Positions 6,106 to 35,485 of a DNA stretch of 64,000 bases are shown here, piece after piece (within the stretch, counting starts at the first letter, position 1; the number at the start of each line of letters is the position of its first letter). The stretch is from IMG/VR virus record IMGVR_UViG_3300033146_004128, positions 64,001-128,000 of that record; one strand, 5' to 3'. A program made the position numbers and the translations under genes. Source of the stretch: a virus. Under the pieces are notes generated by a model that saw only the letters and a list, made by a program, of their open reading frames with translations, was not told the origin of the DNA and ran no database searches.

Positions 6106-7935
6106 ATGGGATCAACGTTTAGTGGAAAATTATACGACAGAAGGTTTATGGGTAAGTATAATAACCTATCCAGTGTATACGCAGACATTCTGCCAAATGA
6201 TATCAAGGAAGTCATACAGTGGTCAGAGTTCATTGTAGCAAACGTACCTACTGTAGCATCAGCATTGGACAAGATGTCAAGTGTTGCCATTACAGCTCTA
6301 CAGTATATGACGTCAGACCTTACAGAGATGTCTTCGACAGACGCTAAGTCATGGAAGAATATCCTTGAAGAAGAAATGGACATAGAAGAGAAGCTACAAG
6401 AGATAGGGTTCAACTATCTTCTTAACGGTAACGTATTCCTATCTGTGTTCTTCCCAGTACATAGAACTGTTACATGCATGAAGTGCAAGACTTCACTGTC
6501 ACAGGAGAGATTCTCTTCAGTAAGCAAACTGAAGCCAGAGATGGAAGAGATGCTAGTGCAGAACAATGGTAAGAGAGACGGAAAGAAGATGCCAGGAGAG
6601 AAACAGCACTCAAAGAAGAAGGTGTTGGTATTCAAGGGTGCTTGTCCTGCCTGTGCATCAAAGTCAATATTCACCATACAGGACATAAAGGTGAAGAATA
6701 TGCAAGGGGTAAATGTTGTTAACTGGCCTGTGAACAGTATGAACTTCGTATCTGACAACATCACAGGTAGGAGTACATATTACTACAAGATGCCAAACTC
6801 AACAAAGAAGATGATCACTTCAGGGTTCCTTGACATGCTATTCCATCAGCCATTAGATATGATAGAGTCAGCAGTAAACAATACAGCAGTAAAGTTTGAT
6901 CAGGATAAGATTCTACATATAAAGAGAAAGAAGATGTCCGGGACAAACACAGGATGGGGAATGCCTATACTTACCTCATCGATACCAGAGATGATCTCTC
7001 TACTCTTGCTTAGAAAGTCTCAAGAGAGAATACTATCGGATATGATATTCCCGTTACGAGGATTGTCACCAAGGGCAGCAGGGTCTGATGGTAACGCAGT
7101 GTACAACTTCATGTCCGGAAGTGACCTGACGAAGAAGGTAGAGGCTATTCTGATGCAACATAAGAACAATCCTACCTCTGTAAAGTTCTTCCCTATACCT
7201 CTAGACCAAGTGAATGCATTCGGAGAGGGTAAGGCACTCAACCTAAGCGAAGAGATAGACCAGATATCTACAATGATTATGACTTCTATTGGTGTACCTA
7301 TTGAGTTCGTAAAAGGTGGTCTTGGATATACAGCTGCCGGTGCATCTATTAGAGTGCTTGAAAACCAGTTGATGGGACTAACAAACTCTATGGAGAAGGT
7401 AGCAAACTTTGTAGCCAAGCAGATAGCAACATTCACAGATAAGAAACAGGTAAGGATTAAGATTACTCCATTCAGAATCATCGATGACCTTGCAGAGAAG
7501 CAAATCTTACTTCAAATGTACCAAGGACAGAAAGTATCAGATCACACTATGGCATCTATGTTCAAGCTCGATGCGAAGACAGAGAACGACAGAATGGAAG
7601 AGGAAGCAAAAGCAGGTGCAAGAACACAGGCTGCTGTGCAAGAGTATATGCAGAACATATCTCAGAACCTCGAAGAGAAGGCAAAGACAGAGGCTATGCT
7701 ATCTCAGAGTTCTACTCAGCAAGTCAATCAACAAGCTATCATGCAAGAGGCAGATCAGATGGCAGCACAGTTACAGCAGATGGAATCCGGGCAGCGTAAG
7801 TCAGAGATGGATCGTCTTCAGAAAGAGAACTGGCTATTATATGTTGCTACTAAGGAACGCATGGAGTTCAATGGTCGCAAGGACGCTACACAGGCTGCGC
7901 AACAACAACAAGCTGAACAGCAAGGAGGAATGTAA
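6106..7935 (+). CDS. Phage portal protein with a CxxC...CxxC insertion
   Basis: 609 aa with portal-like layout: PTVASALDKMSS helix, ILHIK...GWGMP motif, IMTSIGVPIEFVKGG stem helix, Q/E-rich helical C-terminus. AGGAG RBS. Confidence 0.7.
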   Translation: MGSTFSGKLYDRRFMGKYNNLSSVYADILPNDIKEVIQWSEFIVANVPTVASALDKMSSVAITALQYMTSDLTEMSSTDAKSWKNILEEEMDIEEKLQEIGFNYLLNGNVFLSVFFPVHRTVTCMKCKTSLSQERFSSVSKLKPEMEEMLVQNNGKRDGKKMPGEKQHSKKKVLVFKGACPACASKSIFTIQDIKVKNMQGVNVVNWPVNSMNFVSDNITGRSTYYYKMPNSTKKMITSGFLDMLFHQPLDMIESAVNNTAVKFDQDKILHIKRKKMSGTNTGWGMPILTSSIPEMISLLLLRKSQERILSDMIFPLRGLSPRAAGSDGNAVYNFMSGSDLTKKVEAILMQHKNNPTSVKFFPIPLDQVNAFGEGKALNLSEEIDQISTMIMTSIGVPIEFVKGGLGYTAAGASIRVLENQLMGLTNSMEKVANFVAKQIATFTDKKQVRIKITPFRIIDDLAEKQILLQMYQGQKVSDHTMASMFKLDAKTENDRMEEEAKAGARTQAAVQEYMQNISQNLEEKAKTEAMLSQSSTQQVNQQAIMQEADQMAAQLQQMESGQRKSEMDRLQKENWLLYVATKERMEFNGRKDATQAAQQQQAEQQGGM

Positions 7936-11304: not shown

Positions 11305-12375
11305 ATGAGTAACAAAAAAGTTTTACTATATAAAGACAAGATGGCTCCACTTACACATAGAGAATTGGATGACAACTTTGAGCTATTGGGTGCCAAGGCA
11401 GATGGAACGTTCTCTGGAGACTTTGCTATTGTGCTTGAAGGAATGAAGAGCGAAGACTATGTGAACCTTAGTAATGGTGCAGGTCACGCAAAACTGGAGG
11501 GACCTTGCCCACTATACGATAGTGACGGTAGTGCTATGTATCCTATAGAAGGTGAGATAGGAATAAAATTTGATCCTTCGACAGGAAGAAAGTCTTTTGT
11601 GTTGCTACCAAATGATGAAGATATGGCTCTATCTCCAAACGGACAGATAATTGCATCAGCAGGTGGGAGTAGAATTGTAATATCTTTTCTTGAAGATGAA
11701 AAATTTGGAGAGTTTTCGTTACCTGCTGGTTTTACCTCCCAGACATATTGTTGGTGGAAAGATGACGAAACACTATATGTAGCTGGCCACAGATATACTG
11801 ACATACTTGTACTGAAAGTTGATCTAACTAAAGACTCTCTTCTTGTGCTAGATAGTACCATGTCCGATATGTTGCCGGTAAACAAAAGAGGGGTCGTTCT
11901 TAGTGGAGACTATGCATGTTCCTATGACTATTCCAACAATAGCATTGTGACTGTTCATATTTCTACAGGTACAAAAGCGGTATTACCAGAAGAGTCAATA
12001 TCAGCTACAGCAGAATTTTTTGCCATATCTTTAATTGGGATGAAAGATAACAAGTCAATGTTTATAGGAATAGAGTATAACATGAATGAAGCTGGGGATA
12101 ATCTAGATATAGGATCCCTAGCTGTTGTTGGTATAGCCTTGGACGTGAACGGGTCTTTTACAAAGATGTATGATATGGATATGTCTGTTCTTGAGTCAGC
12201 AATGCTACTAAGCGATGATAATGAATTTGTACTTCAAAGACATGTCGTCCAAGGAAAAGAGTTCTATAAGCCTACATATCAAGAATTTTTTACAGGAATA
12301 TACATCCCAAATGAGGATAGATGTTTAGGTATAAACACGCTTTCTCAGGAGATAGCAGTTAAAAAAGGCAAATAA
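11305..12375 (+). CDS. Putative fibre/appendage protein: N-terminal KxxPLTHxELDxNF anchor motif plus beta-propeller-like region
   Basis: DKMAPLTHRELDDNF at the N-terminus; MALSPNGQIIASAG resembles a WD40-like blade. Confidence 0.5.
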   Translation: MSNKKVLLYKDKMAPLTHRELDDNFELLGAKADGTFSGDFAIVLEGMKSEDYVNLSNGAGHAKLEGPCPLYDSDGSAMYPIEGEIGIKFDPSTGRKSFVLLPNDEDMALSPNGQIIASAGGSRIVISFLEDEKFGEFSLPAGFTSQTYCWWKDDETLYVAGHRYTDILVLKVDLTKDSLLVLDSTMSDMLPVNKRGVVLSGDYACSYDYSNNSIVTVHISTGTKAVLPEESISATAEFFAISLIGMKDNKSMFIGIEYNMNEAGDNLDIGSLAVVGIALDVNGSFTKMYDMDMSVLESAMLLSDDNEFVLQRHVVQGKEFYKPTYQEFFTGIYIPNEDRCLGINTLSQEIAVKKGK

Positions 12376-15751: not shown

Positions 15752-17089
15752 ATGCCAAACGCAGAAATGGTAGCTATGCTACAACACTTAATGGCGATCA
15801 CTGGTGCTCACACTGGTACAGCGATCAAAAATGCTATAGACAATCTTGTTGGAACACACGATATTGACGTAGATGCTTTACAAGCAAAAATCCAAGTAAT
15901 ACAAGACATATTGGATGCTGACCCGTCGACCCCGGAGTTTGACCAAGCTCAGAACATAATCACTTCACTTAACTCAATCCTCTCTCGTCTTTCTATTGTA
16001 GAGACTACGATTGCACGCCTTGAAGGTGACGAAACCGTTGCTGGATCAGTAGACTTTAAAGTCGCTGCTGAAAGAGCGAGAGCTATGGCTGCCGAGCAGG
16101 CGAACGCTACATGCTGTTCAACAAATGCTGACAACCTTACAGCTCACATTGCTGCATACGATGCCTTCGTAACAGCTACGAATGCTTCACTAACAACACT
16201 TGCTAGTGACATATCTACAAATGCTCAAGCGATCTCAGATGAGACAACTCGTGCAACAGCTGCAGAAGATGCGATCAACGCTGCTATCTCGGCTATACAG
16301 ACAGCTACAGGTGCATCTGATGCAGACTTAGCAGACCTTACAGATCTTGTTGGAGACATTGTAACTGGTACCGGTCTAAACCCGGACGGCTCATTCACTC
16401 CAGACACTGCAGCCTCTGACGCTACAAACCTATACGAGTACATCCATGATGTTACTGCTGAAGGTGCTGACCGTGCGAATACGCTACGTAAAGCCATCAG
16501 ACGTCTTGCTCGTAAATCACGTCTTGCTGATGAAGCACTAGACGCTCGTCTTGACATACTTGAGGGTGATGCTTCTGTTGCCGGTTCAATCGTGCAAATT
16601 GTAACTGATGCAGTTGCTACAGAGACAGCTCGTGCTGAAGCTGCTGAAGCTGCTCTTGCTCAAGCTGTGGCAGATGAGGAAACTCGTGCCACTGCTGCTG
16701 AAGTTGCACTACAGGCACAGATCGATGATCTGTCTGGTGGTGGTGACGGTTCAATACAGTCAGTACGTGATGAAGTAGATGCTACTCAGACCGGTGCAGG
16801 CTTAGAGGCTGACGGATCGTATGTTGCTGATGCTACGACTGAGTATCTTGGTGATGCGACATCTCTCAAAGATGCCGATAAGAAGCTTGACGTTGAGATC
16901 AAAGGTCTCGAAGATCGTAAAGCTGACCGTACAGAGGTAGTTCTTTCTGCAGATATTGCAGCTATCGACTACTCAGCACTCGGAACAATCTTCCTAGATG
17001 CTCTTAACTGTGGTCTAACAGGAGGAACTGACTGTGGAACACCTAACACAACACCTGATGGTGGTGATGGAGACGGTGCTGTACTTTAA
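15752..17089 (+). CDS. Ala/Asp-rich coiled-coil repeat protein; putative abundant virion fibre
   Basis: Repeats ERARAMAAE, ETTRATAAE, ETARAEAAE, ETRATAAE; LEGDETVAGSV/LEGDASVAGSI; TGLNPDGSF/AGLEADGSY. Has its own promoter and terminator. Confidence 0.6.
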   Translation: MPNAEMVAMLQHLMAITGAHTGTAIKNAIDNLVGTHDIDVDALQAKIQVIQDILDADPSTPEFDQAQNIITSLNSILSRLSIVETTIARLEGDETVAGSVDFKVAAERARAMAAEQANATCCSTNADNLTAHIAAYDAFVTATNASLTTLASDISTNAQAISDETTRATAAEDAINAAISAIQTATGASDADLADLTDLVGDIVTGTGLNPDGSFTPDTAASDATNLYEYIHDVTAEGADRANTLRKAIRRLARKSRLADEALDARLDILEGDASVAGSIVQIVTDAVATETARAEAAEAALAQAVADEETRATAAEVALQAQIDDLSGGGDGSIQSVRDEVDATQTGAGLEADGSYVADATTEYLGDATSLKDADKKLDVEIKGLEDRKADRTEVVLSADIAAIDYSALGTIFLDALNCGLTGGTDCGTPNTTPDGGDGDGAVL

Positions 17090-17097: not shown

Positions 17098-17119
17098 GAG
17101 AACTCCTTCGGGAGTTTTC
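17098..17119 (+). terminator. Probable intrinsic terminator or stabilising hairpin with cUUCGg tetraloop
   Basis: GAGAACTCC-TTCG-GGAGTTTTC, 8 nt after the stop at 17089. The U-tract is short. Confidence 0.7.
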
Positions 17120-17159: not shown

Positions 17160-18110
17160 ATGCAATCAATTAATGTGCATGATGCAGAAGAACTACAGAT
17201 AGGTGAGACCACGCTAAGCAGTCTTAATGCTGGAAAAATATACAAGATAACTGCTAAAAAAGGTCACGTGTATACAATGTCAATGAAAGCTCCAGACGGG
17301 AACTATATTTCACTTCGTGGATTCAATGCATATGGATACGAAACACTTAGCTCTTCAGCATATGGTGAAGAGTATAGTAGTGAGATAGAGATTCAGCTTG
17401 AGGAATGGGAAGAAGAAGATACTCCAGTATTCTTTGAGCTTAATGCAAACTCAGGAGACTATACTGGAACTGTTAAAATTTCTGAAACATTCGTGACCCT
17501 TCGTGAGAAGAAAGGAAAGTCTCTTACTCATTCTGAAATGGATAACAATTTCAGAATGATGGATAAATCAATGCGTGTCCTTGAAGAGAAACTCTGGTCT
17601 AACAGATTTATACCTGAACATACTGCACTATTTGCACAGGGGATAATGGGAACCGTGAATCCTGGGTCATCAGGATCAGCGTCTCTATTCCAGATATCAA
17701 CGGATGACTTTGAAGAGGATGATCTCATAATGGTTGAGATGAAGCTCATGGTAAGAGAAGCAGGAACGTCAGTACCATTCACACTAGTCAATACACTGTC
17801 AGTTTTCAAGGTGTTGGCTAATGGTGAAGTAGCAGAAGAGGACTTCCAGTATATGTCTGGGCCTTATGACTTTGCTACAATAAAGCCTGCCGTGTATGGT
17901 AGTGAAGACAGCAACATAGGGTACAGCGAAGAGTCAGTTACTCCAGAAGGAGAAGATGCTATAGAAGTTGAGTATGTTGGAACACTAAGCTTCAGTTCGT
18001 CGTCGTCACCTAGTGCTCCACAGACATATTATGTTTATGACTCAGAAGATGGGTCAGGTAGTGGTTCCGGAAGTGGTTCTGGAAGTGGTTCTGGAAGTGG
18101 TGGGAAATGA
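17160..18110 (+). CDS. Putative fibre/appendage protein: beta-sandwich N-domain, internal KGKSLTHSEMDNNF anchor motif, Ser/Gly-repeat tail
   Basis: Motif shared with 11305 and 18875; C-terminal SFSSSSSPS and (GS)n; AGGAG RBS. Confidence 0.55.
   Translation: MQSINVHDAEELQIGETTLSSLNAGKIYKITAKKGHVYTMSMKAPDGNYISLRGFNAYGYETLSSSAYGEEYSSEIEIQLEEWEEEDTPVFFELNANSGDYTGTVKISETFVTLREKKGKSLTHSEMDNNFRMMDKSMRVLEEKLWSNRFIPEHTALFAQGIMGTVNPGSSGSASLFQISTDDFEEDDLIMVEMKLMVREAGTSVPFTLVNTLSVFKVLANGEVAEEDFQYMSGPYDFATIKPAVYGSEDSNIGYSEESVTPEGEDAIEVEYVGTLSFSSSSSPSAPQTYYVYDSEDGSGSGSGSGSGSGSGSGGK
18051..18101 (+). repeat. Coding tandem repeat (GGAAGTGGTTCT-like units) encoding a Gly-Ser tail
   Basis: gggtcaggtagtggttccggaagtggttctggaagtggttctggaagtggt encodes GSGSGSGSGSGSGSGSG. 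Confidence 0.85.
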
Positions 18111-18802
18111 TAACGGTAGTCTATCCTCTTATTAAAGCAGAGAGAGATTGTGAGGAGTTTCGATACTCTCTAAGATCTCTTGAGGCAAATATGCAAGAGG
18201 AATTCAGAGTATACGTGATAGGGCATAAGCCTTACTGGTGCACAGGGGTAGAGCATATACCATACTCTGATGCAGGAGAGAAGCAGCAAAATAAGAACAT
18301 AAAGGCACTTATAGCATCATCTCTTGCCGATGAATTTCTATGGGTGAGTGACGATATGTATATTGATGAGCCTGTATCAATAGATGAACTCTCTAAACAG
18401 TACTATCTTGAGGTGTTCAGTGGCATCAAGAAGGGAAGAGTAAAAGGGTTCAAGGCAATGCTATGGAGAACCTATGATAAGGCAAAAGCACTTGGCCTGC
18501 ATGGGCTAAACTATACTACACATACACCGGTACTATTTAATTCTGAAAAGCTAAGAAGAGCGATGGTTGATTTCGGTGCAGTAGAGAATGGATTACATCT
18601 TGAGACTCTATATCTGAATCATATTGGTGCAGAGAAAGATGCCATCAAAATAGGTAGCGAGAAAGTTGGCAGATATAGCAACAGTGAATTTCGTGGTGCC
18701 AAAGATGCTATATATTTGAGTTTTGACGATGCCGGAAAGGGCAGTGGAATATTCAAGTACATCAAGGCTAAGTATAAAAATAAAAGCAGATTTGAAATAT
18801 AG
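18107..18802 (+). CDS. Stealth-family-like sugar-phosphate transferase
   Basis: VVYPL (CR1-like), EEFRYSLRSLEAN, GHKPYW and FLWVSDDMYI (CR2-like), HTPVLF (CR3-like); ATGA-coupled to the upstream fibre-like gene. Confidence 0.7.
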   Translation: MITVVYPLIKAERDCEEFRYSLRSLEANMQEEFRVYVIGHKPYWCTGVEHIPYSDAGEKQQNKNIKALIASSLADEFLWVSDDMYIDEPVSIDELSKQYYLEVFSGIKKGRVKGFKAMLWRTYDKAKALGLHGLNYTTHTPVLFNSEKLRRAMVDFGAVENGLHLETLYLNHIGAEKDAIKIGSEKVGRYSNSEFRGAKDAIYLSFDDAGKGSGIFKYIKAKYKNKSRFEI

Positions 18803-18839
18803 GCAGTACCAGTTAGGTATTGTAGCCATATACTATTTC

Positions 18840-18848
18840 TGCTATAAT
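18840..18848 (+). promoter_or_regulatory. Extended -10 promoter element (TGcTATAAT)
   Basis: Exact TGnTATAAT upstream of the AAGGA RBS and ATG 18875. Confidence 0.7.
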
Positions 18849-18874
18849 GACAAAAAACAATAAAAGGACAACAC

Positions 18875-19987
18875 ATGCCAGTATCAGTACCAATAACAAC
18901 AGAGGGTCAATTCCTAAACAACTTAGATTTTGCAGAGTTTGGGTTTGCGCCATCAGTAGACGGAGTATATAATATTACATTGTTTGCACTAAATGATAGC
19001 TACACTGCAGCAGGGGAACTTACTCCATCAGCTCGTGTTAACGGGGACATAGTAAATGACAAAGACGGAGACCCAGTTGATACATCAACATCATACTCAC
19101 TAGAAAGAGGCGAGTTCTGTACCATAGCTATCCCACTCGTAGCAGGGGGAACGGTATATATTCAGACAGGTGCAGCCAAGATAGCAGGTATTGTTAGACT
19201 TGAAAAGCCTTTCATCTCAAGAGAGGCAAAAGGGTCAGAACTTTCTTTCGAAGAGATGGATGCGAATGTTGCGCTAGGTAAGGAAGCAATATTTAGATTG
19301 GAGCAGGATGAATTAGAGGCTCTAGCAGAGAAGCATTCAGTTGAGCCTGCTGCTAAGACACTTATCCCTAATGGAGATATAGATGCATTCTTTGATGCGA
19401 TGTCATCAAACTATGTTAGTAGACCGATTCAGCTTGGAACAGATGATAATGGTCAGTTCGGGTTTGGATATATGCAAATAGATGAATATGCAGGAAACTT
19501 TGTTGTAAGAATGCCTATCCCAGGATTTGACTCAGTATTCTCTCCAAGTTCAATGCTTAGCTTCGGCAAGGACTATTATGACAATTTATCCATTACAGAA
19601 TGGACTATAGAGGCTGATGAGTATGGCTCTAGTGGTTGGGTAACTTCAACTGTTACAAATGCAGATCTTGTGGCAATGAAAGAAATCGCTGAGCTCGATA
19701 TAGGCCAAGGAGAAGAGCACATTGTACTAATGGCATTCGCAGGGGATAACTACCTGGCACCTCAGATAGGAAAAGGATTTGGAAATTTCGGATACGACTT
19801 TAGCGACAGCCCTATGCCATACTCAGAGCCTATGCATCCTGCTGAAGTATGTGGAGTACCAAACAGAGTTCTTACAACAGTGTCTATGACCGTAGGACAA
19901 AAGAACATTAGGGTTGCAAGATGGTGCGCCATGAACATCGACGAGTACAACAACATCACATTTGACCCATCAGCACAAGCGGGCTAA
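18875..19987 (+). CDS. Putative fibre/appendage protein: beta-sandwich N-domain plus KGSELSFEEMDAN anchor motif
   Basis: Same architecture as 17160-18110; acidic beta-rich C-terminal domain. Confidence 0.5.
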   Translation: MPVSVPITTEGQFLNNLDFAEFGFAPSVDGVYNITLFALNDSYTAAGELTPSARVNGDIVNDKDGDPVDTSTSYSLERGEFCTIAIPLVAGGTVYIQTGAAKIAGIVRLEKPFISREAKGSELSFEEMDANVALGKEAIFRLEQDELEALAEKHSVEPAAKTLIPNGDIDAFFDAMSSNYVSRPIQLGTDDNGQFGFGYMQIDEYAGNFVVRMPIPGFDSVFSPSSMLSFGKDYYDNLSITEWTIEADEYGSSGWVTSTVTNADLVAMKEIAELDIGQGEEHIVLMAFAGDNYLAPQIGKGFGNFGYDFSDSPMPYSEPMHPAEVCGVPNRVLTTVSMTVGQKNIRVARWCAMNIDEYNNITFDPSAQAG

Positions 19988-19989
19988 GC

Positions 19990-20622
19990 ATGAGACATGA
20001 CAACTTAACAGCTGTCGTAACTCACTACAATACACCGAGAGACCTGCTCGTCAGGGCTCTTGCCTCTCTAGATAAATTCAAAATACCATATATCATTGTT
20101 GATGACGGAAGCGACCAAGAATTTGTTGATGGGCTACGTGAGTTTGGCGACAGGGTGATATACCTGAAGAAGAACATAGGTCAAGCACAAGCATTTTATA
20201 CTGGAGCATATGCAGTAAAGACAAAATGGACTCTAAAACTAGATAGTGATGATTATATCACAGACCATCCAGTATATGACGATACTCATGATGCACATGT
20301 TCCTAAGATAAAATACGATGCTCCTATAACACACAAAGGATTGATGGCTGTACCATATTGTTACTTTTCAGGATCAGTTATTAAGACATCATTTTCATGT
20401 GCTTCATATGCTAAAGTCACCAGAAGATTAAATGATGATGTTGAGGCGTATGCACACTTGATAGGTCTTGGAGCAAAGATAGCTACATATGAGTCTAGTT
20501 GGTATAAGTATGCATCAGACAAGCCTAAGAGCGTGTCTAAATCACACAATATATCAGAAAAAAAACAGGCACAAAGGGAAATAAGACAATTAATAACAGA
20601 AGAGTATGGAGAGTTCGTATGA
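19990..20622 (+). CDS. Family 2 glycosyltransferase (GT-A fold)
   Basis: AVVTHYN, IIVDDGSD, KNIGQAQA, LKLDSDD (DxD) motifs. Confidence 0.85.
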   Translation: MRHDNLTAVVTHYNTPRDLLVRALASLDKFKIPYIIVDDGSDQEFVDGLREFGDRVIYLKKNIGQAQAFYTGAYAVKTKWTLKLDSDDYITDHPVYDDTHDAHVPKIKYDAPITHKGLMAVPYCYFSGSVIKTSFSCASYAKVTRRLNDDVEAYAHLIGLGAKIATYESSWYKYASDKPKSVSKSHNISEKKQAQREIRQLITEEYGEFV

Positions 20623-21338
20623 TAGCTGATGTGCAGATGGAAATAACAACGGTATGTAATATGGCATGCTTCTATTGCCCTATCGAGGACATGCCACATA
20701 AACATATGGATCTTGCGCTGGCCAAGGAGATTGTTGACCGGTATGATAAAGGTTCAATGTTCATGCTCAATGGTACCGGAGAGCCAACATTGTATCCGCA
20801 TCTTCTTGAGCTTGTTACTTATATTGTGGACAATGGGAAGCTAGCAAACTTCATTACAAACGGAGTGAACTGTGTAGATGAGGACATACTTAGATTGCTT
20901 GATCACATAGCCTTCTCTGTTGATGACTCAGATACAGACAAGAATGTGAAGACACTAGAGAATGCAGAAAAAGCAATACGTCATGCATGCTCAATAATTG
21001 GAGGCGGAAAAGTTTCTACAATGACTGCTGACTATGGTCAAGATTTGTCAAAGATAAAAGCATTCAGTGAAGAGCTTGGGTTCACGATGAGAAAGCAGAG
21101 GCTGCAACCAAAGGCGTCATATCAAAAGAAGTATTCTATACCTGGGCATAAGCCAAACAGGCTTGAATGTCCATATATAAAGTTCTCGTATATGGATTTC
21201 TATTTTCAGAACGGAACAAAGGCACCATGCTGTTTCATGGTATATGAAGAGCAAAGCATGTCACGTGATGAAGTTGAGAAATCCCTTAATAAGGGAATAG
21301 TTCCAGAGTGCTGCTCCGGATGCTACTTAATGAAATAA
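20619..21338 (+). CDS. Radical SAM protein with C-terminal SPASM/twitch-like Cys cluster
   Basis: CNMACFYC (CxxxCxxC), GTGEPTL, FITNG, and C-terminal CPY...GTKAPCC...CCSGC; ATGA-coupled to the GT2 gene. Confidence 0.88.
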   Translation: MIADVQMEITTVCNMACFYCPIEDMPHKHMDLALAKEIVDRYDKGSMFMLNGTGEPTLYPHLLELVTYIVDNGKLANFITNGVNCVDEDILRLLDHIAFSVDDSDTDKNVKTLENAEKAIRHACSIIGGGKVSTMTADYGQDLSKIKAFSEELGFTMRKQRLQPKASYQKKYSIPGHKPNRLECPYIKFSYMDFYFQNGTKAPCCFMVYEEQSMSRDEVEKSLNKGIVPECCSGCYLMK

Positions 21339-21392: not shown

Positions 21393-21995
21393 ATGGCAGG
21401 TGCGTTATGGAAAAAAGAGGTCGTTATACGTCAGAACTCAACAATAGGAATAGTGGCAGCTCAGAACTGGACAAAAAATTGGCTTGCTAGCTTCCAAGAT
21501 AATCCAGTAAACATTGATGAAAATGGAGACTACATAGATCACTTCTTTGGAGATCTCTTTGATGCAAGAACCGGAAACTTGTATAGGATATTCTCAGATG
21601 CTGCAGGCGTTAAATATAGCATGCCAAATGTAATCTTTGACGTACTTATAACTTCTAAGTTTGTGCCATGGGATAGCGTAAGTGATAATCCCGATCTTGC
21701 CACCGATGAAGACTTTCTTATTACTAGAGGTGGTGTTGCTGATGTAATAGATGAGTTTATTAGTGAGGCAAAGATAATCAATGATGGTGGGATAATCAAC
21801 AATAATAAAATAACCCTGTCGAATACTCCAGTAGGAGGTATAATTGGGGGGACATGTAGGATCAAGATAGGAGCAGTAAATGTGTTCGACGAGGTTGACT
21901 GTGTAGCCAATGGGAATATCCTTACTGTGCTTCCTGATCAAGGTGTAGACTACGAGGGAGAAATGTGTCTTGTCAGCTATCTAATTAACACATAG
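21393..21995 (+). CDS. Hypothetical acidic beta-rich protein (possible virion component)
   Basis: 200 aa ORF with a good RBS; no recognisable motif. Confidence 0.6.
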   Translation: MAGALWKKEVVIRQNSTIGIVAAQNWTKNWLASFQDNPVNIDENGDYIDHFFGDLFDARTGNLYRIFSDAAGVKYSMPNVIFDVLITSKFVPWDSVSDNPDLATDEDFLITRGGVADVIDEFISEAKIINDGGIINNNKITLSNTPVGGIIGGTCRIKIGAVNVFDEVDCVANGNILTVLPDQGVDYEGEMCLVSYLINT

Positions 21996-22049: not shown

Positions 22050-22751
22050 ATGTTGAGAGATGCAATTTCTGGCCAAGAATACGATAAAGAGGCTATCTTG
22101 GGAGGAGCACTGCTTGCCGGCGGTAAAATGATAAAGTCTCTCGGTAGTGGAATAGGCAAGTTAGGGTCTGGTAAAATTTCAAAAGTTGGAAAAAATATGA
22201 AGTCTTGGGCCACTAATAGGAATAAGGCACTACAGACGAGAATGACCAAGACAGATAACCTCATCAAGAAGAATGGATTAGAGAACAATCTTGGCGTTGG
22301 TGGAAGCATAGGTAAGAGTCTACTTAGACACACAAAGCAGAGTGGAGGTTTTGTAAGTTCAAAACTTAACTCTCTGGGAAAAACTCTCATTAACAGACGT
22401 AGTGTAAAAATAAAGGCTAAAAAGACTGGTCCGTATGATCTGAATGACATCAATACAAAAGGACCTACCAGTGGTGGAGGTTCTGGAACCACAACTACGA
22501 CCTCAAGCACAACAAGTAGCACAGGTGCACAGCATGGGCCAAGAACACCTCAAGAAGAAATAGACTTCCTTAAAAATAAAAATAAAAAGCTAAAAAAGAA
22601 GAGCAAGAACAACTCTTTGCTTGATGCATACAAGACTACAAAGCTACATAAAAACTACGGGAACACCCCTCTTTACGCAGCCGGTGGCGTTGCTGCTTAT
22701 GCTGCAGGTGGAGGATTGGGCGGTGGTCCAACCGTAGTTAACAACGGATAA
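22050..22751 (+). CDS. Basic protein with terminal glycine-rich hydrophobic segments
   Basis: AILGGALLAGG at the N-terminus, AAGGVAAYAAGGGLGGG at the C-terminus, K-rich core and T/S linker; compositionally like the 556 and 1928 proteins. Confidence 0.55.
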   Translation: MLRDAISGQEYDKEAILGGALLAGGKMIKSLGSGIGKLGSGKISKVGKNMKSWATNRNKALQTRMTKTDNLIKKNGLENNLGVGGSIGKSLLRHTKQSGGFVSSKLNSLGKTLINRRSVKIKAKKTGPYDLNDINTKGPTSGGGSGTTTTTSSTTSSTGAQHGPRTPQEEIDFLKNKNKKLKKKSKNNSLLDAYKTTKLHKNYGNTPLYAAGGVAAYAAGGGLGGGPTVVNNG

Positions 22752-26578: not shown

Positions 26579-29500
26579 ATGACAAGTCTTAACAGGGATC
26601 ACAATGAGATAAATGAAGCTATTCACAATGAGATAGTTAAGGCTTTCGAGGGAAGAAAGGTAGAGGGAAAGACAAAGACTCTTGAGTACTCCAATGTGAC
26701 AGGAGCAAAAGCAGACATGTCATACCGAAAGCTAACAGATGCAATAAACTCAGGTGGAACAATAGCTAGAAAATATAAAGCTGATGTTACGATAAGAGAT
26801 AACGAGACCGGTAAAGTACTTGATAAGAAGAGTGGTGTACATATAGGGGAGACTCCAATTTACACAAAGAAGGGTGGGTTGGTTGTTGACGGGAATACAT
26901 ACAACCTTCCTAGCCAGATAAGACTTAAGCCTGGTGCGTATACTCTCAACAAGGCAAATGGCGATGTTGAGACTATGATGAACGTAAAGAACGGAAGAGG
27001 TATGAAGCTTGTATCTCCTCAGGACAAAGATGATGTAAAATTGCAGATAGGTTCAAGACAGTTTAATCCTCTTGATGTCGCAAAGATACTTGGTGCAACG
27101 GATAAGGAATTGTCATCAAACATAGGTAAAGATGTTGCTGCTCACTTAAATAAGAAGTCGAATGTTGAAGGAACAGCACTTAAGCTATCTCAGACCCTTG
27201 GGCTTGTCGGTCCAGACATAACACCTCCACACAAAGAAGTGATATCAAATCTACGAGATTATTTTGGAAAGACTGAGCTAGATACAAGCGTAACTACTCA
27301 TACACTTGGAAGGGCAATAGATAAGATTGATAAAGATGCGATAATGCTTGGTATCAAAAGGAATGTTGCTGTCAAGAGAGGGACAGAAGAGGAAGATGAC
27401 AAAGAAAACCTAATGTTCAAGAAGATTATCCCTCCAGAGAAACTTATGGTAGAGGGTGTAAAGAGGGACCTAATGAAGCCAGAGGCAAGAATGAAAGGTC
27501 TTCTGAATAACCCATTTAACCATGCAAGCATAACAGAGGTTCTTTCTGAGCCTACATTGAAGCATGCAGCAAAGAAGTTTGTGACAACAAGTGCGATCTC
27601 AAGAATGCCTGAAGAGTACAATCCATTACATACATTGCAAGGGAGTAGTGATATAACTCCATTGGGAGAAGGCGGTATAACATCTACCGAGATGATAACA
27701 CCATCTGTAAGGTCACTACACCTATCACAGCTTGGATTTATAGACCCTATAAAGTCTCCAGAGGGTGCAAACACTGGAGTCACATTAAGTACGACTCACG
27801 GGGCTTATATAGACGACAAGGGTAATGCTGCCATGAAGGTTAAGAACTTAAAGTCTGGGAAGATTGAGACAAAGACTGTGGCAGACCTATGGGACAAGAA
27901 GATAGCGTTCCCTGATCCAAACAAAAAAGGAGAGGTTGGCATAAGACACAAGAGCGATATCAGTGTAGGCAAGATGAAAGATGCTGACTATCAGATAACG
28001 CACTCTGAGAATATGTATGGGCCGGCTATGAACTCTCTTGGAATAATAAGTTCAAATGACCCAACCAGAAACCTTATGGCATCAAAGCATGTCATGCAAG
28101 CACTTCCTCTTGTTGATGGCGATGCTAACCCGGTAAGTCTGCTTGGAGCAAATGGAAAGAGTATGCTAGCAAACATAGCATCGAAGCACTTGCCTACTGC
28201 GAGTGTTTCCGGGACTGTTACAAGGGTTGATACTAGAGCTGGGAAGATACACTATAAAGATTCGTCTGGAAAAGAACACAACAGTGACTACGCTATATCT
28301 CCAATGCAATTAAATACAAAGACTTTCATACAGCATTCTCCTATAGTTAAAGCAGGAGACAAAGTAGAGGCAGGACAGGCTCTCGCTGATTCAAACTTCT
28401 CTAAGGGTGGAGAATTGGCCATAGGAAAGAATCTTAGAACAGCATGGATGATGTACCCAGGTACAAGAAATGATGCATTCGTATTGTCTGAGTCTGCAGC
28501 TAAAAAGATGACATCGGTACACTCTTCAAAGTTTGATATAGATGGGACAAAAGGTACGATACTGGATAAGAAGAAGTTTGCAGCCATGTTCCCAGAGGTT
28601 GTTAAGAAGATAAGCCTTGACAAATATGATGACAGGGGGATAATTCTTCCTGGTCAGACAGTGGCTAAAGATGAACCAATCGTTCTAGGCATGAAAAAGA
28701 TGGATCCATCAGAGGTCAGATTTGCAAATGACAAAGTAAAAAAATTACTATATGGCGGAATGGCACCGGTTATGCAAAAATGGAAGGGAGACAATTCAGC
28801 AACCATATCTCATGTCACAACCAAAGGATCCCAGCATAGAGTTATTGCTCAGTACAAGGCAGAGATGAAGACTGGAGATAAGCTTGCAGGTAGATCTGGA
28901 AACAAAGGTATTATCTCAGCTGTTATCCCAGACAAGGAGATGCCTAGAGATGAGAATGGAAAGCCTATAGAGCTTATACTTGGTGGTGCTGGTGTTAACT
29001 CAAGACAGAACCCTGCTCAGATCATAGAAGCTCAACTTACGGAGGTAGCAAAGAAGACAGGGAAGAAGTACGTACTTCCTCACTACACTCATGATGATCT
29101 TCATATATTTGCAAACAACGAGGCAAAGAAGAACAATGTGAACATGTATCATGAAATATACGACCCTGTAAGAAAGACCAAATTGAAGAATAAGGTATTT
29201 GTGGCAGACTACAATGTAATGAAGTTGTTCAAGCAGGGAGAGGGGACATACTCAGCAACAGGTCATGGCCCGGTTGACTCATTGAACCAACCGAAGAAAG
29301 GAGGAAAAGAGTCTGCGGCATCGATATCTAATATGGAGATAAACTCTCTATTGTCACATGACGCAAGAGACTTCCTCAAAGAGGTTGGAACAGTAAAATC
29401 ACAGAGAAACCAAAAGTGGTTCTCTGCATTTGAGTCAGGAGCTATACCGCCTGCACCTGAGAAGAAGTCTGCTAGGGACAATTTTCATGGGCTTCTGAAC

Positions 29501-30826
29501 CAACTCAACATATCAGTGAGAGAGGACGGAACAAGTAAACACATAGTACCTCTAACGGATAAAGATATAGTAAGGAAAAGTAGTGGTAAAATTATTGAGC
29601 CGTATGGTCTTAAGCGTAATACTCTGGATGCTGTCAGTGGCGGCTTTTATGACACTAGTGTATTTGGTGGACATGGTGAAAACTTCGGTCACATAGATCT
29701 TGGATCACATATCATTAACCCTCTATACAAAAAGCCAGTGGCGGCTATGATGGGTACCACAGAAAAAGGTCTAGATAAGATGATGGAGTCAGAGGGCATA
29801 TCAAACATATACAAAAAGATAAGTGGCTCAAGACTAAAGTCAACAGTGAATAGGTTAAAGAAAGACATAGAGAAGACTAAAGATACATCAAAAATAGACA
29901 GAAGCATGAAGGCGATAAAGGCTCTAAGAAAGATAGATAGTCTTGGAGATAACCCTGCAGACGTTATGTTTATGTCAAAAGTTCCGGTATTGCCTGTGAA
30001 GATGAGACCAATATCTAAACTTCCAGACGGCAGTATTATCGAGCATGATGTAAATCATCACTATGCGAACATAATAAGGGCGTCAAATTCTTTACAGAGA
30101 GCAAATGAATCCGATACTCCGGCACCAATAAAGAACAGACTTCATAGAGAGCTACAGGACCATGTTGGGGCAATGTACGGAACAAACAAATCTCCTGATC
30201 CAAAGATGGAGAGAAAAGAGGTCAAGAGCGTAATGGATGTTGTGGCCGGCTCAAACCCAAAGACATCTTTTTGGCATCAAAAGATACTTAAGAATAAGGT
30301 TTTTGGATCAGGTAGAGCTGTAATTGTTCCACACATAAAGACTATGAATATGGACCAAGTAGAGATACCTAAGTATGTAGCATGGAAAGCGTTTGAGCCT
30401 CATATAACAAGACGCATGTCTCAGATGGGTATACCTAATGATATGGCGAAAGACATGATTGACAAGAAGAACGAGACAGCAACCAATGTTCTGCATAGCG
30501 TTATGAAGGAGGTTCCGGTTGTTATAAACAGAGCACCTGCTCTTCATAAGCACAATATGACAGGACACTACGCAAAGATATCATCCGGAAATACAATGCA
30601 TATACCTCCTGAGATAGAGAATGGTCAAAATGCAGACTACGACGGAGATCAACTTGCAGTACATGTTCCTCTTGGGCATGCTGCAATAAAGGATGTTAAG
30701 ACAAAGCTTATGGCGTCAAAGCAGTTGTTTACTGATACGTCTAAGAATGGTCTGACAATGGGAATAGACTTGGATCCTTTTATAGGATTCTATGATGCTA
30801 CAAAACATAAGAATGGTAAAAAGTAA
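26579..30826 (+). CDS. rpoBC: Phage two-barrel DNA-directed RNA polymerase: beta-like chain fused to the N-terminal (catalytic) half of beta'
   Basis: Beta motifs IGETPIYTKKGGLVVDG, FIDPIKSPEGANTG, NDPTRNLMAS, GDKLAGRSGNKGIIS, GVNSRQNPAQI. Beta' motifs FGHIDL, VPVLPVKMRP, SGRAVI, NRAPALH, NADYDGDQLAVHVP. Ends at the equivalent of QDVVLGLYYMT. Confidence 0.95.
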   Translation: MTSLNRDHNEINEAIHNEIVKAFEGRKVEGKTKTLEYSNVTGAKADMSYRKLTDAINSGGTIARKYKADVTIRDNETGKVLDKKSGVHIGETPIYTKKGGLVVDGNTYNLPSQIRLKPGAYTLNKANGDVETMMNVKNGRGMKLVSPQDKDDVKLQIGSRQFNPLDVAKILGATDKELSSNIGKDVAAHLNKKSNVEGTALKLSQTLGLVGPDITPPHKEVISNLRDYFGKTELDTSVTTHTLGRAIDKIDKDAIMLGIKRNVAVKRGTEEEDDKENLMFKKIIPPEKLMVEGVKRDLMKPEARMKGLLNNPFNHASITEVLSEPTLKHAAKKFVTTSAISRMPEEYNPLHTLQGSSDITPLGEGGITSTEMITPSVRSLHLSQLGFIDPIKSPEGANTGVTLSTTHGAYIDDKGNAAMKVKNLKSGKIETKTVADLWDKKIAFPDPNKKGEVGIRHKSDISVGKMKDADYQITHSENMYGPAMNSLGIISSNDPTRNLMASKHVMQALPLVDGDANPVSLLGANGKSMLANIASKHLPTASVSGTVTRVDTRAGKIHYKDSSGKEHNSDYAISPMQLNTKTFIQHSPIVKAGDKVEAGQALADSNFSKGGELAIGKNLRTAWMMYPGTRNDAFVLSESAAKKMTSVHSSKFDIDGTKGTILDKKKFAAMFPEVVKKISLDKYDDRGIILPGQTVAKDEPIVLGMKKMDPSEVRFANDKVKKLLYGGMAPVMQKWKGDNSATISHVTTKGSQHRVIAQYKAEMKTGDKLAGRSGNKGIISAVIPDKEMPRDENGKPIELILGGAGVNSRQNPAQIIEAQLTEVAKKTGKKYVLPHYTHDDLHIFANNEAKKNNVNMYHEIYDPVRKTKLKNKVFVADYNVMKLFKQGEGTYSATGHGPVDSLNQPKKGGKESAASISNMEINSLLSHDARDFLKEVGTVKSQRNQKWFSAFESGAIPPAPEKKSARDNFHGLLNQLNISVREDGTSKHIVPLTDKDIVRKSSGKIIEPYGLKRNTLDAVSGGFYDTSVFGGHGENFGHIDLGSHIINPLYKKPVAAMMGTTEKGLDKMMESEGISNIYKKISGSRLKSTVNRLKKDIEKTKDTSKIDRSMKAIKALRKIDSLGDNPADVMFMSKVPVLPVKMRPISKLPDGSIIEHDVNHHYANIIRASNSLQRANESDTPAPIKNRLHRELQDHVGAMYGTNKSPDPKMERKEVKSVMDVVAGSNPKTSFWHQKILKNKVFGSGRAVIVPHIKTMNMDQVEIPKYVAWKAFEPHITRRMSQMGIPNDMAKDMIDKKNETATNVLHSVMKEVPVVINRAPALHKHNMTGHYAKISSGNTMHIPPEIENGQNADYDGDQLAVHVPLGHAAIKDVKTKLMASKQLFTDTSKNGLTMGIDLDPFIGFYDATKHKNGKK

Positions 30827-33204: not shown

Positions 33205-33345
33205 ATGAAGAGACAAACATTACGACTGTCAGTAAAGGCAAACAAGCAAGTAAGGCTAAAGACTTCAAAAACAAAGACAAACGCTTCCGCAACAAGTACC
33301 GGTGGCGGAACAATAACATTAAAAGGAACACGACATGGCAATTAG
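33205..33345 (+). CDS. Very small basic protein (46 aa)
   Basis: MKRQTLRLSVKANKQVRLKTSK... fills the gap between two genes; ATG 33205 lies one base after the upstream stop. Confidence 0.45.
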   Translation: MKRQTLRLSVKANKQVRLKTSKTKTNASATSTGGGTITLKGTRHGN

Positions 33346-34321
33346 TGAAGAAGAGTTTATAAAATTACAAGGTAAAGTTGGAGCATTAGTAAGCATCCTA
33401 TCAGGTAGAGAAGTAGATGAAGCAGATGGCGAGAAGATAAAACGCTTCATAGATAATTACTCAGTTGTAGAGTCTATCATAGAGAACGATACTATTAGTG
33501 AACTTATTGATAATGTTATCCAGATCAAGGTTAGATTCGAGGATGTATCAAGCAGGGTCGACGGAATACTTGGGGCTGTTGAGGTTGAGTCAAGCAAGCT
33601 CGTTTCAAATATTAGTGGAGGTGCTTCCGGAGTAGCTCTAAATATTGCAGATATGGTATTGTTTCAAACGTCAGTGTCTGATGCATACAAGTCACTTCTT
33701 CAGCACCTTAATGATATAGACCTTACAGGAAAAGTAAACAGAATGGAGTCGTCACTGCGTGAGTCTCTTGGTCTTATTGATCAGATGAAGGCGCAGAGAG
33801 AAGAGATTAATGTTCTTCTGCAGAAGGTTGCGGACAACAAAGCATTGATAGACAATATGGACGATGTAAACCATACTCAAGCAGTTCTTATAGATAATGC
33901 TGAGAACATGATAGCAGAAATGGAAAAGCAGATAGAGAACTACTCTTTCTATGCAGAAGAGTTTGATAAGGTATACACAACAGCTGTAATATTCGTATCA
34001 AAGTTCTCATCGATAGTTGCTGAGCTAGATAGAGTTTCGGCAAGAGACGCCAAGCTGGAAGAACTGATGGCGTCAGTAATATCTGTTTCGACGCAGGACT
34101 TCACAGCAATGGAAGAGATTAATGACAAGATGGCTATGGCAATAGAGTCTCTTGGCCTAAATACAGCTCAAAAGCTTGATGACATGATAATGTTCGTGAA
34201 CGAGTACAATGCGGTAGGAATGGCTCTTGACGGAGTAAGAACAGATATGCAAGCAATCACATCAGCTGTTGGAGACGAGCTTACAACACTAGGCGAAGAG
34301 CAAATAGGCTACCAAGCATAA
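33335..34321 (+). CDS. Acidic coiled-coil protein
   Basis: 328 aa, almost entirely heptad-like helical, no Pro, Trp or Cys. Confidence 0.6.
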   Translation: MAISEEEFIKLQGKVGALVSILSGREVDEADGEKIKRFIDNYSVVESIIENDTISELIDNVIQIKVRFEDVSSRVDGILGAVEVESSKLVSNISGGASGVALNIADMVLFQTSVSDAYKSLLQHLNDIDLTGKVNRMESSLRESLGLIDQMKAQREEINVLLQKVADNKALIDNMDDVNHTQAVLIDNAENMIAEMEKQIENYSFYAEEFDKVYTTAVIFVSKFSSIVAELDRVSARDAKLEELMASVISVSTQDFTAMEEINDKMAMAIESLGLNTAQKLDDMIMFVNEYNAVGMALDGVRTDMQAITSAVGDELTTLGEEQIGYQA

Positions 34322-34333
34322 TAGGAGAGTTTC

Positions 34334-35485
34334 ATGAGACAGTTCAATTACAAGTATAAATCATATCTCAAGAATAGACATGGATTCGTAAATATGGTTC
34401 CTGATGCAAAGCTGCTCCATGACTATATGGGGATAAGTGGTAAGTATGGAATGCCTGTATTCCAGACACCAGGAGCAAAGTTTTACGGAGAGTTATTTTG
34501 TGATATATTTAAGGACAACAAGAGAACTTTTCAGCACAAGGTAAAAATGTTCTTCCCTGAGATAAAGCACGGCGTTATCTCAATAGACAAGATACAGTAC
34601 TCAATGGAGTCTGACCCAGTTGATGATGTGTCTATGGAGTATAGGCTCATACAAAATGGAAAATACGAAGAATACTATGTTATTGACGACTTTGTAGTTG
34701 AGTTTGAAATAGAAGTGTCTGTATCTTTTGGTAAAAGAAATTCAATAACAAAACCGGTTGAAATATTTTGTGACTACATAGATGTGTATGTGCATAATCA
34801 GTTAATATCTCTTACTGTCCATGATAATAATATCCTATTTGTTCCTTATGCTATGTCGTATAGGTTAGATATGCCTCCTGAAGCTGCACGAAACGAAACA
34901 GATTCGTCAAACATGACAGTAAACACAGACTTGTCATATGGTTTTATTTTAAATAAGGCTTCTAGAGACAAAATGGAAGAGAAGGGGTTCAAGACAACAG
35001 AAATGGATATGCTTCTCTTGGATTCAAAAAAGAAAATTCAAGGGCTAAAAGAAGATGTGGTAGACAACCCTATGGATACAGGCATCCCAGGTCCACTTGT
35101 TGCTAAGAGGCACAGTGGTGTATCCAAGAAGTACATGATCTCTCTTCCTGAGTCAATATTCCCAGATAGGATGACATATAGTGGATTGCCAATTTTCAAC
35201 TCAGAGAATTGTCTATCGTGTTGTGATGTAAAGAAGCTTGGATGGTGTTCTGTGCACTTCAAGCCATATGGGCTACCGATGAGTAGTCCATGCCCACCCC
35301 CAGCACCTCCATGTGGAGAAAAATGTTCTAAATTTACACGGTATACAGTAAGGAATAGACTTATAGACACATTATTGATCCTCATGGATAAAACATTTGA
35401 AGAGCTCGATAGCCTTGTTGTGAAGCACAGTTCTAGAGCAGCAACGGAACTCATAGATGACGAATATATAGTAGAAAAGGAATAA
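34334..35485 (+). CDS. Hypothetical protein with a Cys/Pro-rich C-terminal segment
   Basis: CLSCC...WC...PCPPPAPPCGEKC; AGGAG RBS. Confidence 0.65.
   Translation: MRQFNYKYKSYLKNRHGFVNMVPDAKLLHDYMGISGKYGMPVFQTPGAKFYGELFCDIFKDNKRTFQHKVKMFFPEIKHGVISIDKIQYSMESDPVDDVSMEYRLIQNGKYEEYYVIDDFVVEFEIEVSVSFGKRNSITKPVEIFCDYIDVYVHNQLISLTVHDNNILFVPYAMSYRLDMPPEAARNETDSSNMTVNTDLSYGFILNKASRDKMEEKGFKTTEMDMLLLDSKKKIQGLKEDVVDNPMDTGIPGPLVAKRHSGVSKKYMISLPESIFPDRMTYSGLPIFNSENCLSCCDVKKLGWCSVHFKPYGLPMSSPCPPPAPPCGEKCSKFTRYTVRNRLIDTLLILMDKTFEELDSLVVKHSSRAATELIDDEYIVEKE

Follow-up and report, generated by a model that had tools for sequence, protein, structure and literature searches.

Virion O-glycosylation in mycobacteriophages was reportedly described by Freeman et al. 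in Cell Host Microbe in 2023. In the passages of PMC12619734 and PMC12363180 that cite such work, glycans of the phages Che8, Corndog and Myrna are placed on the C-termini of capsid and tail-tube subunits, Che8 gp110 and Corndog gp38 are described only as glycosyltransferases, and the sugar coats are stated to reduce antibody binding and the production of neutralizing antibodies. Here we analyze a 64,000-nucleotide stretch (the window), corresponding to bases 64001–128000 of the IMG/VR phage record IMGVR_UViG_3300033146_004128, a sequence of 187,664 bp with direct terminal repeats. At positions 17160–21338 of the window, two proteins sharing a short anchor motif are each followed by enzyme genes: F1, which has a serine-rich C-terminal tail, precedes ST, a miniature enzyme assigned by profile and fold comparison to the Stealth family, and F2 precedes a family 2 glycosyltransferase (GT2) and a radical SAM enzyme. 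As in the mycobacteriophages, enzyme genes are linked to genes of known or presumed particle proteins with C-terminal extensions, namely in six pairs of one clade of ST proteins (clade A) and, in a second one (clade B), with three major head proteins and one major tail protein. Unlike the mycobacteriophage system, the enzyme is a homologue of Stealth phosphotransferases, and its partner in clade A is encoded separately, bears the anchor motif and ends in a long tail of dipeptide repeats.

The closest described relatives of the enzyme are the human GlcNAc-1-phosphotransferase GNPTAB (9bgg, 7s6n, 7s05) and the M. tuberculosis exopolysaccharide phosphotransferase CpsY (8j2n), with which ST shares the EE(L/F)RYSLRS, DD and HxP stretches, a weakly aligned KSxFE stretch and a GT-A-type fold. 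Unlike them, ST comprises only 231 aa, retains a few residues of CR1 and possesses no spacer, Notch, DMAP or EF-hand part and no evident membrane segment. The acceptor proposed here for ST is a protein serine in place of mannose on N-glycans or a polysaccharide. Our literature search found no report linking Stealth enzymes to phage particles or to virion glycosylation.

A precedent for the chemistry is found in proteinase I of Dictyostelium, carrying Ser-GlcNAc-1-phosphate. To our knowledge, serine phosphoglycosylation has so far been described in eukaryotic microbes. Another parallel is TLP-2, a glycofibril from pond water whose source organism is unknown; in the model of it (bioRxiv 10.1101/2025.09.30.679562), alternate residues of a linear dipeptide repeat, taken to be serines, bear phosphodiester-linked glycans. 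The phage tails considered below resemble it in being (Ser-Gly)/(Ser-Ala) dipeptide repeats encoded beside a homologue of sugar-1-phosphate transferases. However, TLP-2 is a long fibril with unknown sequence and enzymes, while the F1 tail contains ~9 repeats and the longest one, in the contig L101, up to ~90. We regard a link between the phage tails and TLP-2 as a low-probability possibility.

The Stealth-type enzyme and its serine-tailed partner

All real genes among the window ORFs (open reading frames) of this region are located on the + strand, as are all window features described here. F1 (17160–18110, 316 aa) consists of an N-terminal part of ~100 aa, the anchor motif (residues 111–131, 17490–17552; ...REKKGKSLTHSEMDNNF), a body and a Ser-rich C-terminal tail (17991–18107) composed of SSSSS, then (GS)9, then GGK, which provides the candidate acceptor serines. 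At the DNA level, the tail repeat (18045–18101) is a 12-nt tandem repeat, with (GS)9 starting at about 18051. A genome-wide check identified F1 as the sole protein with a C-terminal Ser/Gly run in the 188-kb genome. The ST gene (18107–18802, 231 aa; phrog_7999, E 1.9e-25) follows immediately, its ATG overlapping the F1 stop codon as ATGA. The five ORFs of the two units with their coordinates, the Ser/Gly tail of F1, the ATGA overlap and the gene order had all been listed in the initial annotation and were borne out.

Judging by sequence profiles and a predicted structure, ST is a genuine miniature Stealth-family enzyme, in agreement with the Stealth-like transferase initially annotated here, and a probable sugar-1-phosphate transferase; the assignment relies on the family profile and the fold search and not on the Pfam match of the single sequence. 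A profile of 101 ST relatives, searched against solved structures, matched GNPTAB cores over CR2–CR3 (E 1.5e-17 for 9bgg and 3.1e-17), Drosophila GNPT (E 5.8e-12) and M. tuberculosis CpsY (8j2n; E 1.2e-8). Residues 16–24 of ST read EEFRYSLRS and residues 81–83 read SDD. D82-D83 align to NDD in the LNDD stretch of GNPTAB, and H139-x-P141 to its HMPH; D83 and H139 are invariant among the 101 relatives, and D82 and P141 are conserved in at least 90% of them. In GNPTAB, the catalytic base is His-956, oriented by Asp-408 (PMC11418123, in the residue numbering of that paper). The C-terminal KSRFEI of ST aligns weakly with the PSQFE of GNPTAB in CR4 (FPxxSxFE), and one relative matches PF17103 at E 5e-4.

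The AlphaFold2 model of ST obtained with the alignment of relatives (pLDDT 97, pTM 0.92) shows one compact domain with high confidence along the full 231 residues, and no membrane segment is evident either in the model or in the sequence read by eye. A Foldseek search with this model placed CpsY (8j2n, E 3.3e-11) at ranks 1–2 and GNPTAB at ranks 3–6 and 9 (TMq 0.63–0.71), ahead of the other GT-A enzymes among the matches listed, which include LARGE1 and blood-group transferases. Searching the PDB with the ST and GT2 sequences one at a time gave no informative match.

When 1.84 billion proteins were searched with a profile of six phage ST homologues, 4,797 representative clusters matched at E ≤ 1e-3, and most of these are stand-alone proteins of ~230 aa. 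Longer members either carry an additional GT41/TPR, GT2, FkbM methyltransferase, sulfotransferase or capsule-synthesis domain or represent tandem duplicates, and three distant members follow a 344-aa protein which, from its sequence, we take to be a GDP-mannose 4,6-dehydratase. These fusions and the dehydratase-like neighbour therefore indicate a glycan-building context. In the collections scanned, ST proteins are essentially confined to viruses: at least 461 ST loci occur in IMG/VR, 185,579 species genomes (one for each species) yielded only nine distant partial matches, and phrog_7999 had no match in any of 14 control genomes. Scans of IMG/VR with the single proteins ST, a kinase and P0002 gave no matches. 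The mycobacteriophage homologues Nebkiss gp166 and Patt gp6 lie among hypothetical genes and are uninformative on tails. Among the family representatives P0050, P0079 and P0102, fused architectures join the mini-Stealth domain to TPR+GT41 (O-GlcNAc-transferase-type), to a sulfotransferase and to a GT2–FkbM methyltransferase–GT2 array; several family proteins contain two Stealth domains in tandem.

The pairing of ST with a serine-tailed protein recurs in five other phage contigs (G004, L090, L098, L099 and L101), where the closest relatives of ST stand directly after an anchor-motif gene with a long (S-G/S-A)n C-terminal tail. Across the pairs, the ST start overlaps or abuts the stop of the tailed gene. 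The tails of the other contigs are analogous to that of F1 and longer. The upstream bodies are of several kinds, with a coiled coil in L090, L098 and L099, and F1 shares 21% identity with its counterpart in G004; the constant elements are the motif, the tail and ST.

In G004, with a polymerase 52% identical to that of the window and an ST homologue 36–37% identical, the partner has 476 aa, carries the motif close to the N-terminus (RPLSANEFDANN) and ends in ~55 residues rich in Ser, Gly, Thr and Asp, and ST starts with GTG 11 nt inside the end of the partner gene. L101 (portal 65% identical) has a Ser-Gly/Ser-Ala tail of ~180 residues. L098 and L099, both from contigs of ~40 kb, and L090 share a common gene order: the major head gene (a phrog_1328 member in both L090 and L098) comes first, followed by a small gene, a homologue of the coiled-coil protein encoded at 15752–17089 of the window, a homologue of the N-terminus of the protein encoded at 21393, a motif-bearing coiled-coil protein and ST. 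The latter coiled-coil protein combines an N-terminal motif (e.g. RPLTIEEMDNNF) with a long S-G/S-A/S-T tail. In relatives of the window lineage the position of the pair changes: after the coiled-coil gene in the window, before homologues of 33335–35485 in G004, and right after the portal gene in L101. The idea, put forward in the initial annotation, that each structural-type protein is coupled to its own downstream glyco-enzyme is thus matched by conserved and co-varying adjacency for the first unit; it holds more weakly for the second one, where adjacency is seen in the window and in the related contig L007.

A quick maximum-likelihood tree (IQ-TREE) was computed for 70 ST proteins, and those preceded by a protein with a serine-rich C-terminus group into two clades. 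Clade A contains six serine-tailed rows out of seven (approximate likelihood-ratio test, aLRT, 94), and clade B four out of five (aLRT 99). In clade B, the gene upstream of ST encodes an HK97-type major head protein in L166, L176 and L141 and a major tail protein in L124, with C-termini represented by AAAASGSGSGSASGSGSGA or by runs of 5–8 serines. The serine-tail trait takes 4 changes on the tree versus 9.6 in shuffles, and 0 of 500 shuffles were as low. Major head protein families were the commonest PHROGs among the 39 upstream neighbours scanned.

The anchor motif is common to F1, F2, the proteins upstream of ST in G004, L090, L098, L099 and L101, and a third window protein of 356 aa (11305–12375), which carries it at the very N-terminus (...KDKMAPLTHRELDDNF) and had no family match in library scans. 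As proposed initially, F1 and F2 do share the motif: a stretch of ~43 residues around KGxxL(T/S)xxEMDxN aligns at the same position in both proteins (approximately residues 100–143; BLASTP E 6e-5, hhalign E 1.3e-4). The two proteins were also considered as paralogues, and this was rejected, since the motif stretch alone aligns.

Both proteins had been named fibres, for which neither sequence nor fold gives evidence. No fibre domain and no homology to known fibre or particle proteins was detected for F1 or F2 in Pfam (sub-threshold low-complexity matches only), PHROGs, NCBIfam or cultured phages; searches of cultured phages with the DNA of the region and with both proteins produced no matches, and no F1 homologue was found in the cultured phages or related loci searched. 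ESM Atlas models of F1 and F2 are poor (pLDDT 0.56 and 0.35), and their look-alikes are weak; the only one of note is a faint similarity between F1 and a cluster named 'virion structural protein'. The coiled-coil partners encoded after the major head gene in L090, L098 and L099 provide context, not proof, for fibres. Both 'fibre' and the 'capsule-like coat' envisaged originally go beyond the evidence; overall, the underlying observation holds, and its interpretation appears right in kind for the first unit and plausible for the second one.

Proposed decoration of the tail

We consider the chances slightly better than even that ST decorates serines of its partner's C-terminal tail with sugar-1-phosphate and that F1–ST and F2–GT2–radical SAM are separate cassettes. 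For F1 itself, the recurring pairing of ST with tails in unrelated phage particle proteins suggests that its tail is probably decorated by ST.

We infer the acceptor, the chemistry, the donor sugar and the location on the virion as follows. F1 and ST would be made together by coupled translation. ST would bind a nucleotide sugar, most likely a UDP-sugar, as can be expected from its family, which also guides all subsequent steps. His139 would deprotonate a tail serine, and Asp82 and Asp83 would hold the metal and the histidine, by analogy with GNPTAB. The serine would then attack the beta-phosphate, giving Ser-O-phosphate-sugar and a nucleoside monophosphate. Repetition of this transfer along the dipeptide repeat would create a densely charged, sugar-bearing flexible tail, the product being phosphodiester-linked sugars or short phosphoglycan chains. 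Docking on the virus particle is the most likely role of the anchor motif, so that the decorated tail would face outward from the virion. The motif occurs without tails (in F2, in the 11305–12375 protein and in a 174-aa L090 protein), and tails occur without it (in the L166 capsid protein). ST may act alone, since the 42-kb record holding L098, complete by CheckV estimate (100%), contains ST and no GT2.

Several observations weigh against this proposal. The single ST sequence scores 26 bits with Pfam Stealth_CR2 (PF11380, E 1.1e-5), short of the 39.4-bit cut-off, and CR1 (DVVYTWV...) is at best vestigial, the N-terminal VVYP being a mere remnant. L092, a member of the window's own clade, lacks a tail upstream of ST, and the two tail-linked clades represent only two independent origins on the tree. 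Many STs adjoin methyltransferases or unknown genes. Family-wide enrichment of serine-rich upstream C-termini is modest: at least 6 serines in the last 20 residues occur in 7 of 59 upstream genes versus 20 of 639 other ORFs (Fisher p 0.005, with crude ORF calls). The link to the tail therefore belongs to particular ST lineages and not to the whole family, and tail and ST could co-travel simply as neighbours. As for the second cassette, F2 has no Ser/Thr-rich region, and the radical SAM enzyme is absent from L007, the closest relative.

An alternative explanation is that the Ser/Gly tail is a mere disordered spacer or 'bristle', that ST has another target, and that the two are neighbours through sharing a single recombination cassette. 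Fibrous phage proteins often have low-complexity tails, the two clades of tail-linked STs go back to few independent events, and a coiled-coil protein of L090 has a tail without ST directly after it. However, such a cassette would need a boundary recurring inside the upstream gene, keeping the tail and ST while the body changes, and a spacer with nothing beyond it has no obvious purpose. The mycobacteriophage precedent, as outlined in the passages mentioned above, also concerns modification at the C-termini of capsid and tail-tube subunits. We judge the spacer explanation to be unlikely.

Another explanation of about the same, low probability is that the enzymes act on the host envelope (capsule, lipopolysaccharide, teichoic acid or exopolysaccharide), e.g., in a superinfection block or in release, and that their position simply marks an accessory island. 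Characterized bacterial Stealth proteins build capsule or exopolysaccharide, as far as the title of the CpsY structure tells, and a GT2 homologue bears the database name 'involved in cell wall biosynthesis'. The region between the portal and polymerase genes is highly variable, with one small gene in the phages Arash and D69 (in D69, counted from the gene at the portal's place), and many ST family members are not found beside serine-tailed genes. Nevertheless, envelope modification leaves unexplained why ST overlaps serine-tailed genes in six phages, with several kinds of bodies and at three positions in the lineage, and why clade B enzymes follow major head and tail proteins ending in serine runs. 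The compact single-domain model of ST, with no evident membrane segment, is a further point against it.

Hypermodification of phage DNA bases, by glycosyl or phosphoglycosyl groups, as a protection against restriction appears very improbable. Phage glycosyltransferases often modify DNA (reviewed in PMC12619734), and L007 encodes a QueC-like PP-loop protein just before F2. On the other hand, the conserved neighbours of ST are capsid, tail and serine-tailed proteins, and no base-modifying partner lies next to the genes studied here, although no genome survey for hydroxymethylase-type genes was made.

If ST indeed decorates the tails, mini-Stealth enzymes would represent a second, chemically different route to phage coats, producing phosphodiester-linked sugars on serine. 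Virion glycosylation itself is known in mycobacteriophages, but judging from the genes, decoration of a serine tail by a Stealth-type enzyme would be a coat modification new to experiment. Besides antibody recognition, phage sugar coats could plausibly affect adhesion and particle stability. The mechanism would be widespread, with at least 461 IMG/VR loci and thousands of protein clusters, and it would use a portable, easily recognized acceptor tag, the C-terminal Ser-X repeat. It would also give a role to PHROG 7999, whose listed function is unknown, and point to genes from which structures such as the TLP-2 glycofibril might arise. The tail peptide and the 231-aa enzyme, predicted to be soluble, constitute a testable two-gene system.

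As a bolder speculation with only a small chance of being correct, the (Ser-Gly)/(Ser-Ala)n tails could be templates receiving a phosphodiester-linked glycan at every second residue and forming a TLP-2-like filament sheathed in sugar. In that case, some of the pond-water glycofibrils would come from phages or from particles derived from them, and serine phosphoglycosylation would extend to the virions of bacteriophages.

The F2, GT2 and radical SAM cassette

F2 (18875–19987, 370 aa) comprises an N-terminal part of ~100 aa, the anchor motif (residues 113–131, nt 19211–19267), a middle part that varies and a C-terminal end that is conserved (RWC...DEYNNITFDP). The 72 nt separating ST from F2 include a promoter-like element, TTGTAG, a 17-nt spacer and TGcTATAAT, which can be read from the sequence at 18820–18848. 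Of the promoter annotated there, the readable motif stands, while an excess over chance does not: a generic scan gave 13 promoter-like sites versus 13.0 in shuffles, and the 18820–18848 site fell below the scan threshold. The phage also encodes its own RNA polymerase, a caveat on any promoter-like site of this kind.

GT2 (19990–20622, 210 aa) begins after a 2-nt gap and matches PF00535 (E 4.7e-11, 43.4 bits versus the 23.3-bit cut-off), in accordance with its earlier annotation. It is a minimal GT-A core with DDGSD and DSDD motifs. The radical SAM gene (20619–21338, 239 aa) overlaps GT2 by 4 nt; its product matches PF04055 (E 3.6e-10, 40.7 bits versus the 29.5-bit cut-off) and has the cluster motif CX3CX2C at residues 13–20 (C13, C17, C20).

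The latter protein had been annotated as a radical SAM-SPASM enzyme, of which the radical SAM part stands, with the Pfam match and cluster motif just given, and the SPASM part is reduced to a cysteine pattern. A SPASM domain has the pattern CX9-15GX4C, a gap, CX2CX5CX3C, a gap and C. No SPASM model matched in Pfam at E ≤ 0.1, and the NCBIfam matches listed, all of them to peptide and cofactor maturases and far below their cut-offs, cover the N-terminal core only. As in the SPASM/twitch enzymes (PqqE 6c8v, MftC, BtrN), its best weak matches, the protein has the CX3CX2C core followed by CX14GX4C; unlike SPASM enzymes, it has no SPASM hidden Markov model match, lacks the CX2CX5CX3C block, with CC-x2-C alone left ahead of the stop codon, and has only 56 residues after the barrel. 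These last 56 residues contain CX14GX4C and then CC-x25-CC-x2-C, conserved in the sole full-length homologue, P0156 (74% identity). The C-terminal end may possibly hold one auxiliary cluster (twitch-like) and not a full SPASM domain, as the cysteine spacing suggests. An AlphaFold2 model built from 3 sequences (pLDDT 52) left the C-terminus unmodelled.

Searches of 5.8 billion proteins and of IMG/VR turned up just two F2 homologues, both on contigs that also encode a GT2. Homologues of F2 (P0002, 43%), GT2 (P0159, 75%) and the radical SAM enzyme (P0156) are each recorded on a single JGI contig of 100,441 bp. In L007, a 62-kb fragment with a polymerase 79% identical to that of the window, F2 (L007:2892–3977, 27%) is directly followed by GT2 (45%), and the flanking coiled-coil and 21393 genes are retained (89% and 75%). 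Between these flanks, L007 has a QueC-like PP-loop gene, the F2 homologue and GT2, with no F1, ST or radical SAM gene. The PP-loop protein (L007:2280–2831, 183 aa; PF06508, E 1.2e-7) takes the place of F1 and ST directly before F2.

F2 and GT2 thus co-occur in three of the three genomes with F2, and the radical SAM gene in two of the three. From this shared occurrence and the identities, it follows that F2 and GT2 travel and diverge together, with F2 always changing faster. Such co-divergence fits an exposed protein with a dedicated enzyme, and the comparison of these genomes indicates that the second cassette is a separate, rapidly swapping unit in which the radical SAM gene is optional. A GT2 of any kind is present in only 2 of 46 related phage records.

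The F2 distribution also separates the two cassettes. The five other records with a tail–ST pair that were searched contain no GT2, nor does G004, and L007 has F2–GT2 without ST; because of this, the two cassettes are taken as independent. A scheme in which GT2 and the radical SAM enzyme extend a glycan started by ST was considered and found unlikely on the same grounds.

We infer the targets of the second cassette: GT2 most likely glycosylates F2 or a glycan on F2, and the radical SAM enzyme would act as an accessory modifier of the sugar or of F2. A different assignment, which we hold to be quite doubtful, is peptide maturation following the logic of MftC/MftF in mycofactocin, with the radical SAM enzyme modifying the C-terminal end of F2 and GT2 glycosylating it afterwards. 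It agrees with the last ~40 residues of F2 being the most conserved part across the three very divergent homologues, and with the best NCBIfam matches, which include MftC for the radical SAM enzyme (E 1.9e-11) and MftF for GT2 (E 3.8e-4). However, these matches lie far below the curated cut-offs and concern generic cores only, L007 keeps F2 and GT2 without the radical SAM enzyme, and a SPASM domain would need more length than the C-terminal Cys region offers.

G021, a distant relative (polymerase 29%) and the second of the related records with a GT2, has a separate glycan cluster (L086:8640–17096, − strand, equal to G021:C1:116639–125095). It opens with a tail-fibre gene whose product includes a Peptidase_S74 chaperone domain, followed by genes for a 204-aa protein and for two small proteins made largely of Ser/Thr/Trp repeats (133 and 139 aa; TSYWTSYW...), and continues with a 292-aa protein without assigned identity, GT2, two GT8 genes, a radical SAM gene with an N-terminal Cys-rich element and another GT8. 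This cluster is the same theme built from different parts.

The island between the portal and polymerase genes

The stretch at 17160–21338 is made up of two independent cassettes of two to three genes within a variable island between the genes of a portal-like protein (6106–7935) and of a fused beta/beta' RNA polymerase chain (26579–30826). In Salmonella phage Arash, a distant cultured relative, a single small gene separates the portal and polymerase genes, and Vibrio phage D69, where the genes are unnamed, has an Arash-like layout. The interval spans ~18 kb in the window as against one small gene in these phages, and it is therefore considered an inserted, variable island. In comparison with closer uncultured relatives, the island content differs from phage to phage.

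Upstream of F1, the gene at 15752–17089 encodes an Ala-rich coiled-coil protein of 445 aa with the C-terminal end GDGDGAVL and homologues in L007, L005, L004, L090, L098 and L099; in the ~40-kb phages, its homologue sits between the major head protein gene and the pair of tailed protein and ST. On the other side, a 200-aa protein (21393–21995), with homologues in the same six contigs, marks the far edge of the module, and its N-terminal ~75 residues are kept beside the tailed protein and ST in the small phages. From the gene order in L090, L098 and L099 it follows that the window coiled-coil gene, F1–ST and the 21393 gene form one module, into which F2–GT2–radical SAM is inserted.

Members of the coiled-coil family (window 15752–17089, L005:4359–5327, L004:7367–8377 and L090:2676–3422) share a conserved C-terminal end G(D/E)(G/D)DGAV(L/I/A/V), and an LDADPSTPEFD stretch at the N-terminus is common to the window and L090 proteins. 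The L090 homologue bears its own long S/G/A/T tail, which stands before the conserved GDGAV-type end.

A hairpin of 9 bp closed by a TTCG tetraloop can be read from the sequence at 17098–17119, just 3' of the coiled-coil gene and with 40 nt to go to F1. It is absent from the terminator-scan output and is possibly a terminator or stability element. Beyond the module, the gene at 22050–22751 encodes a basic protein of 233 aa with an internal GGGSGTTTTTSSTTSSTG run, the only other Ser/Thr/Gly-rich stretch of the genome, and this protein could be a further sugar acceptor.

In L005 and L004, the same island is filled by paralogous proteins (L005:5389–7794 and L004:4852–5682) with a common N-terminal domain of ~170 aa. 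One of them carries DUF285 repeats (E 6e-98), which exemplifies payload swapping on a shared N-terminal part.

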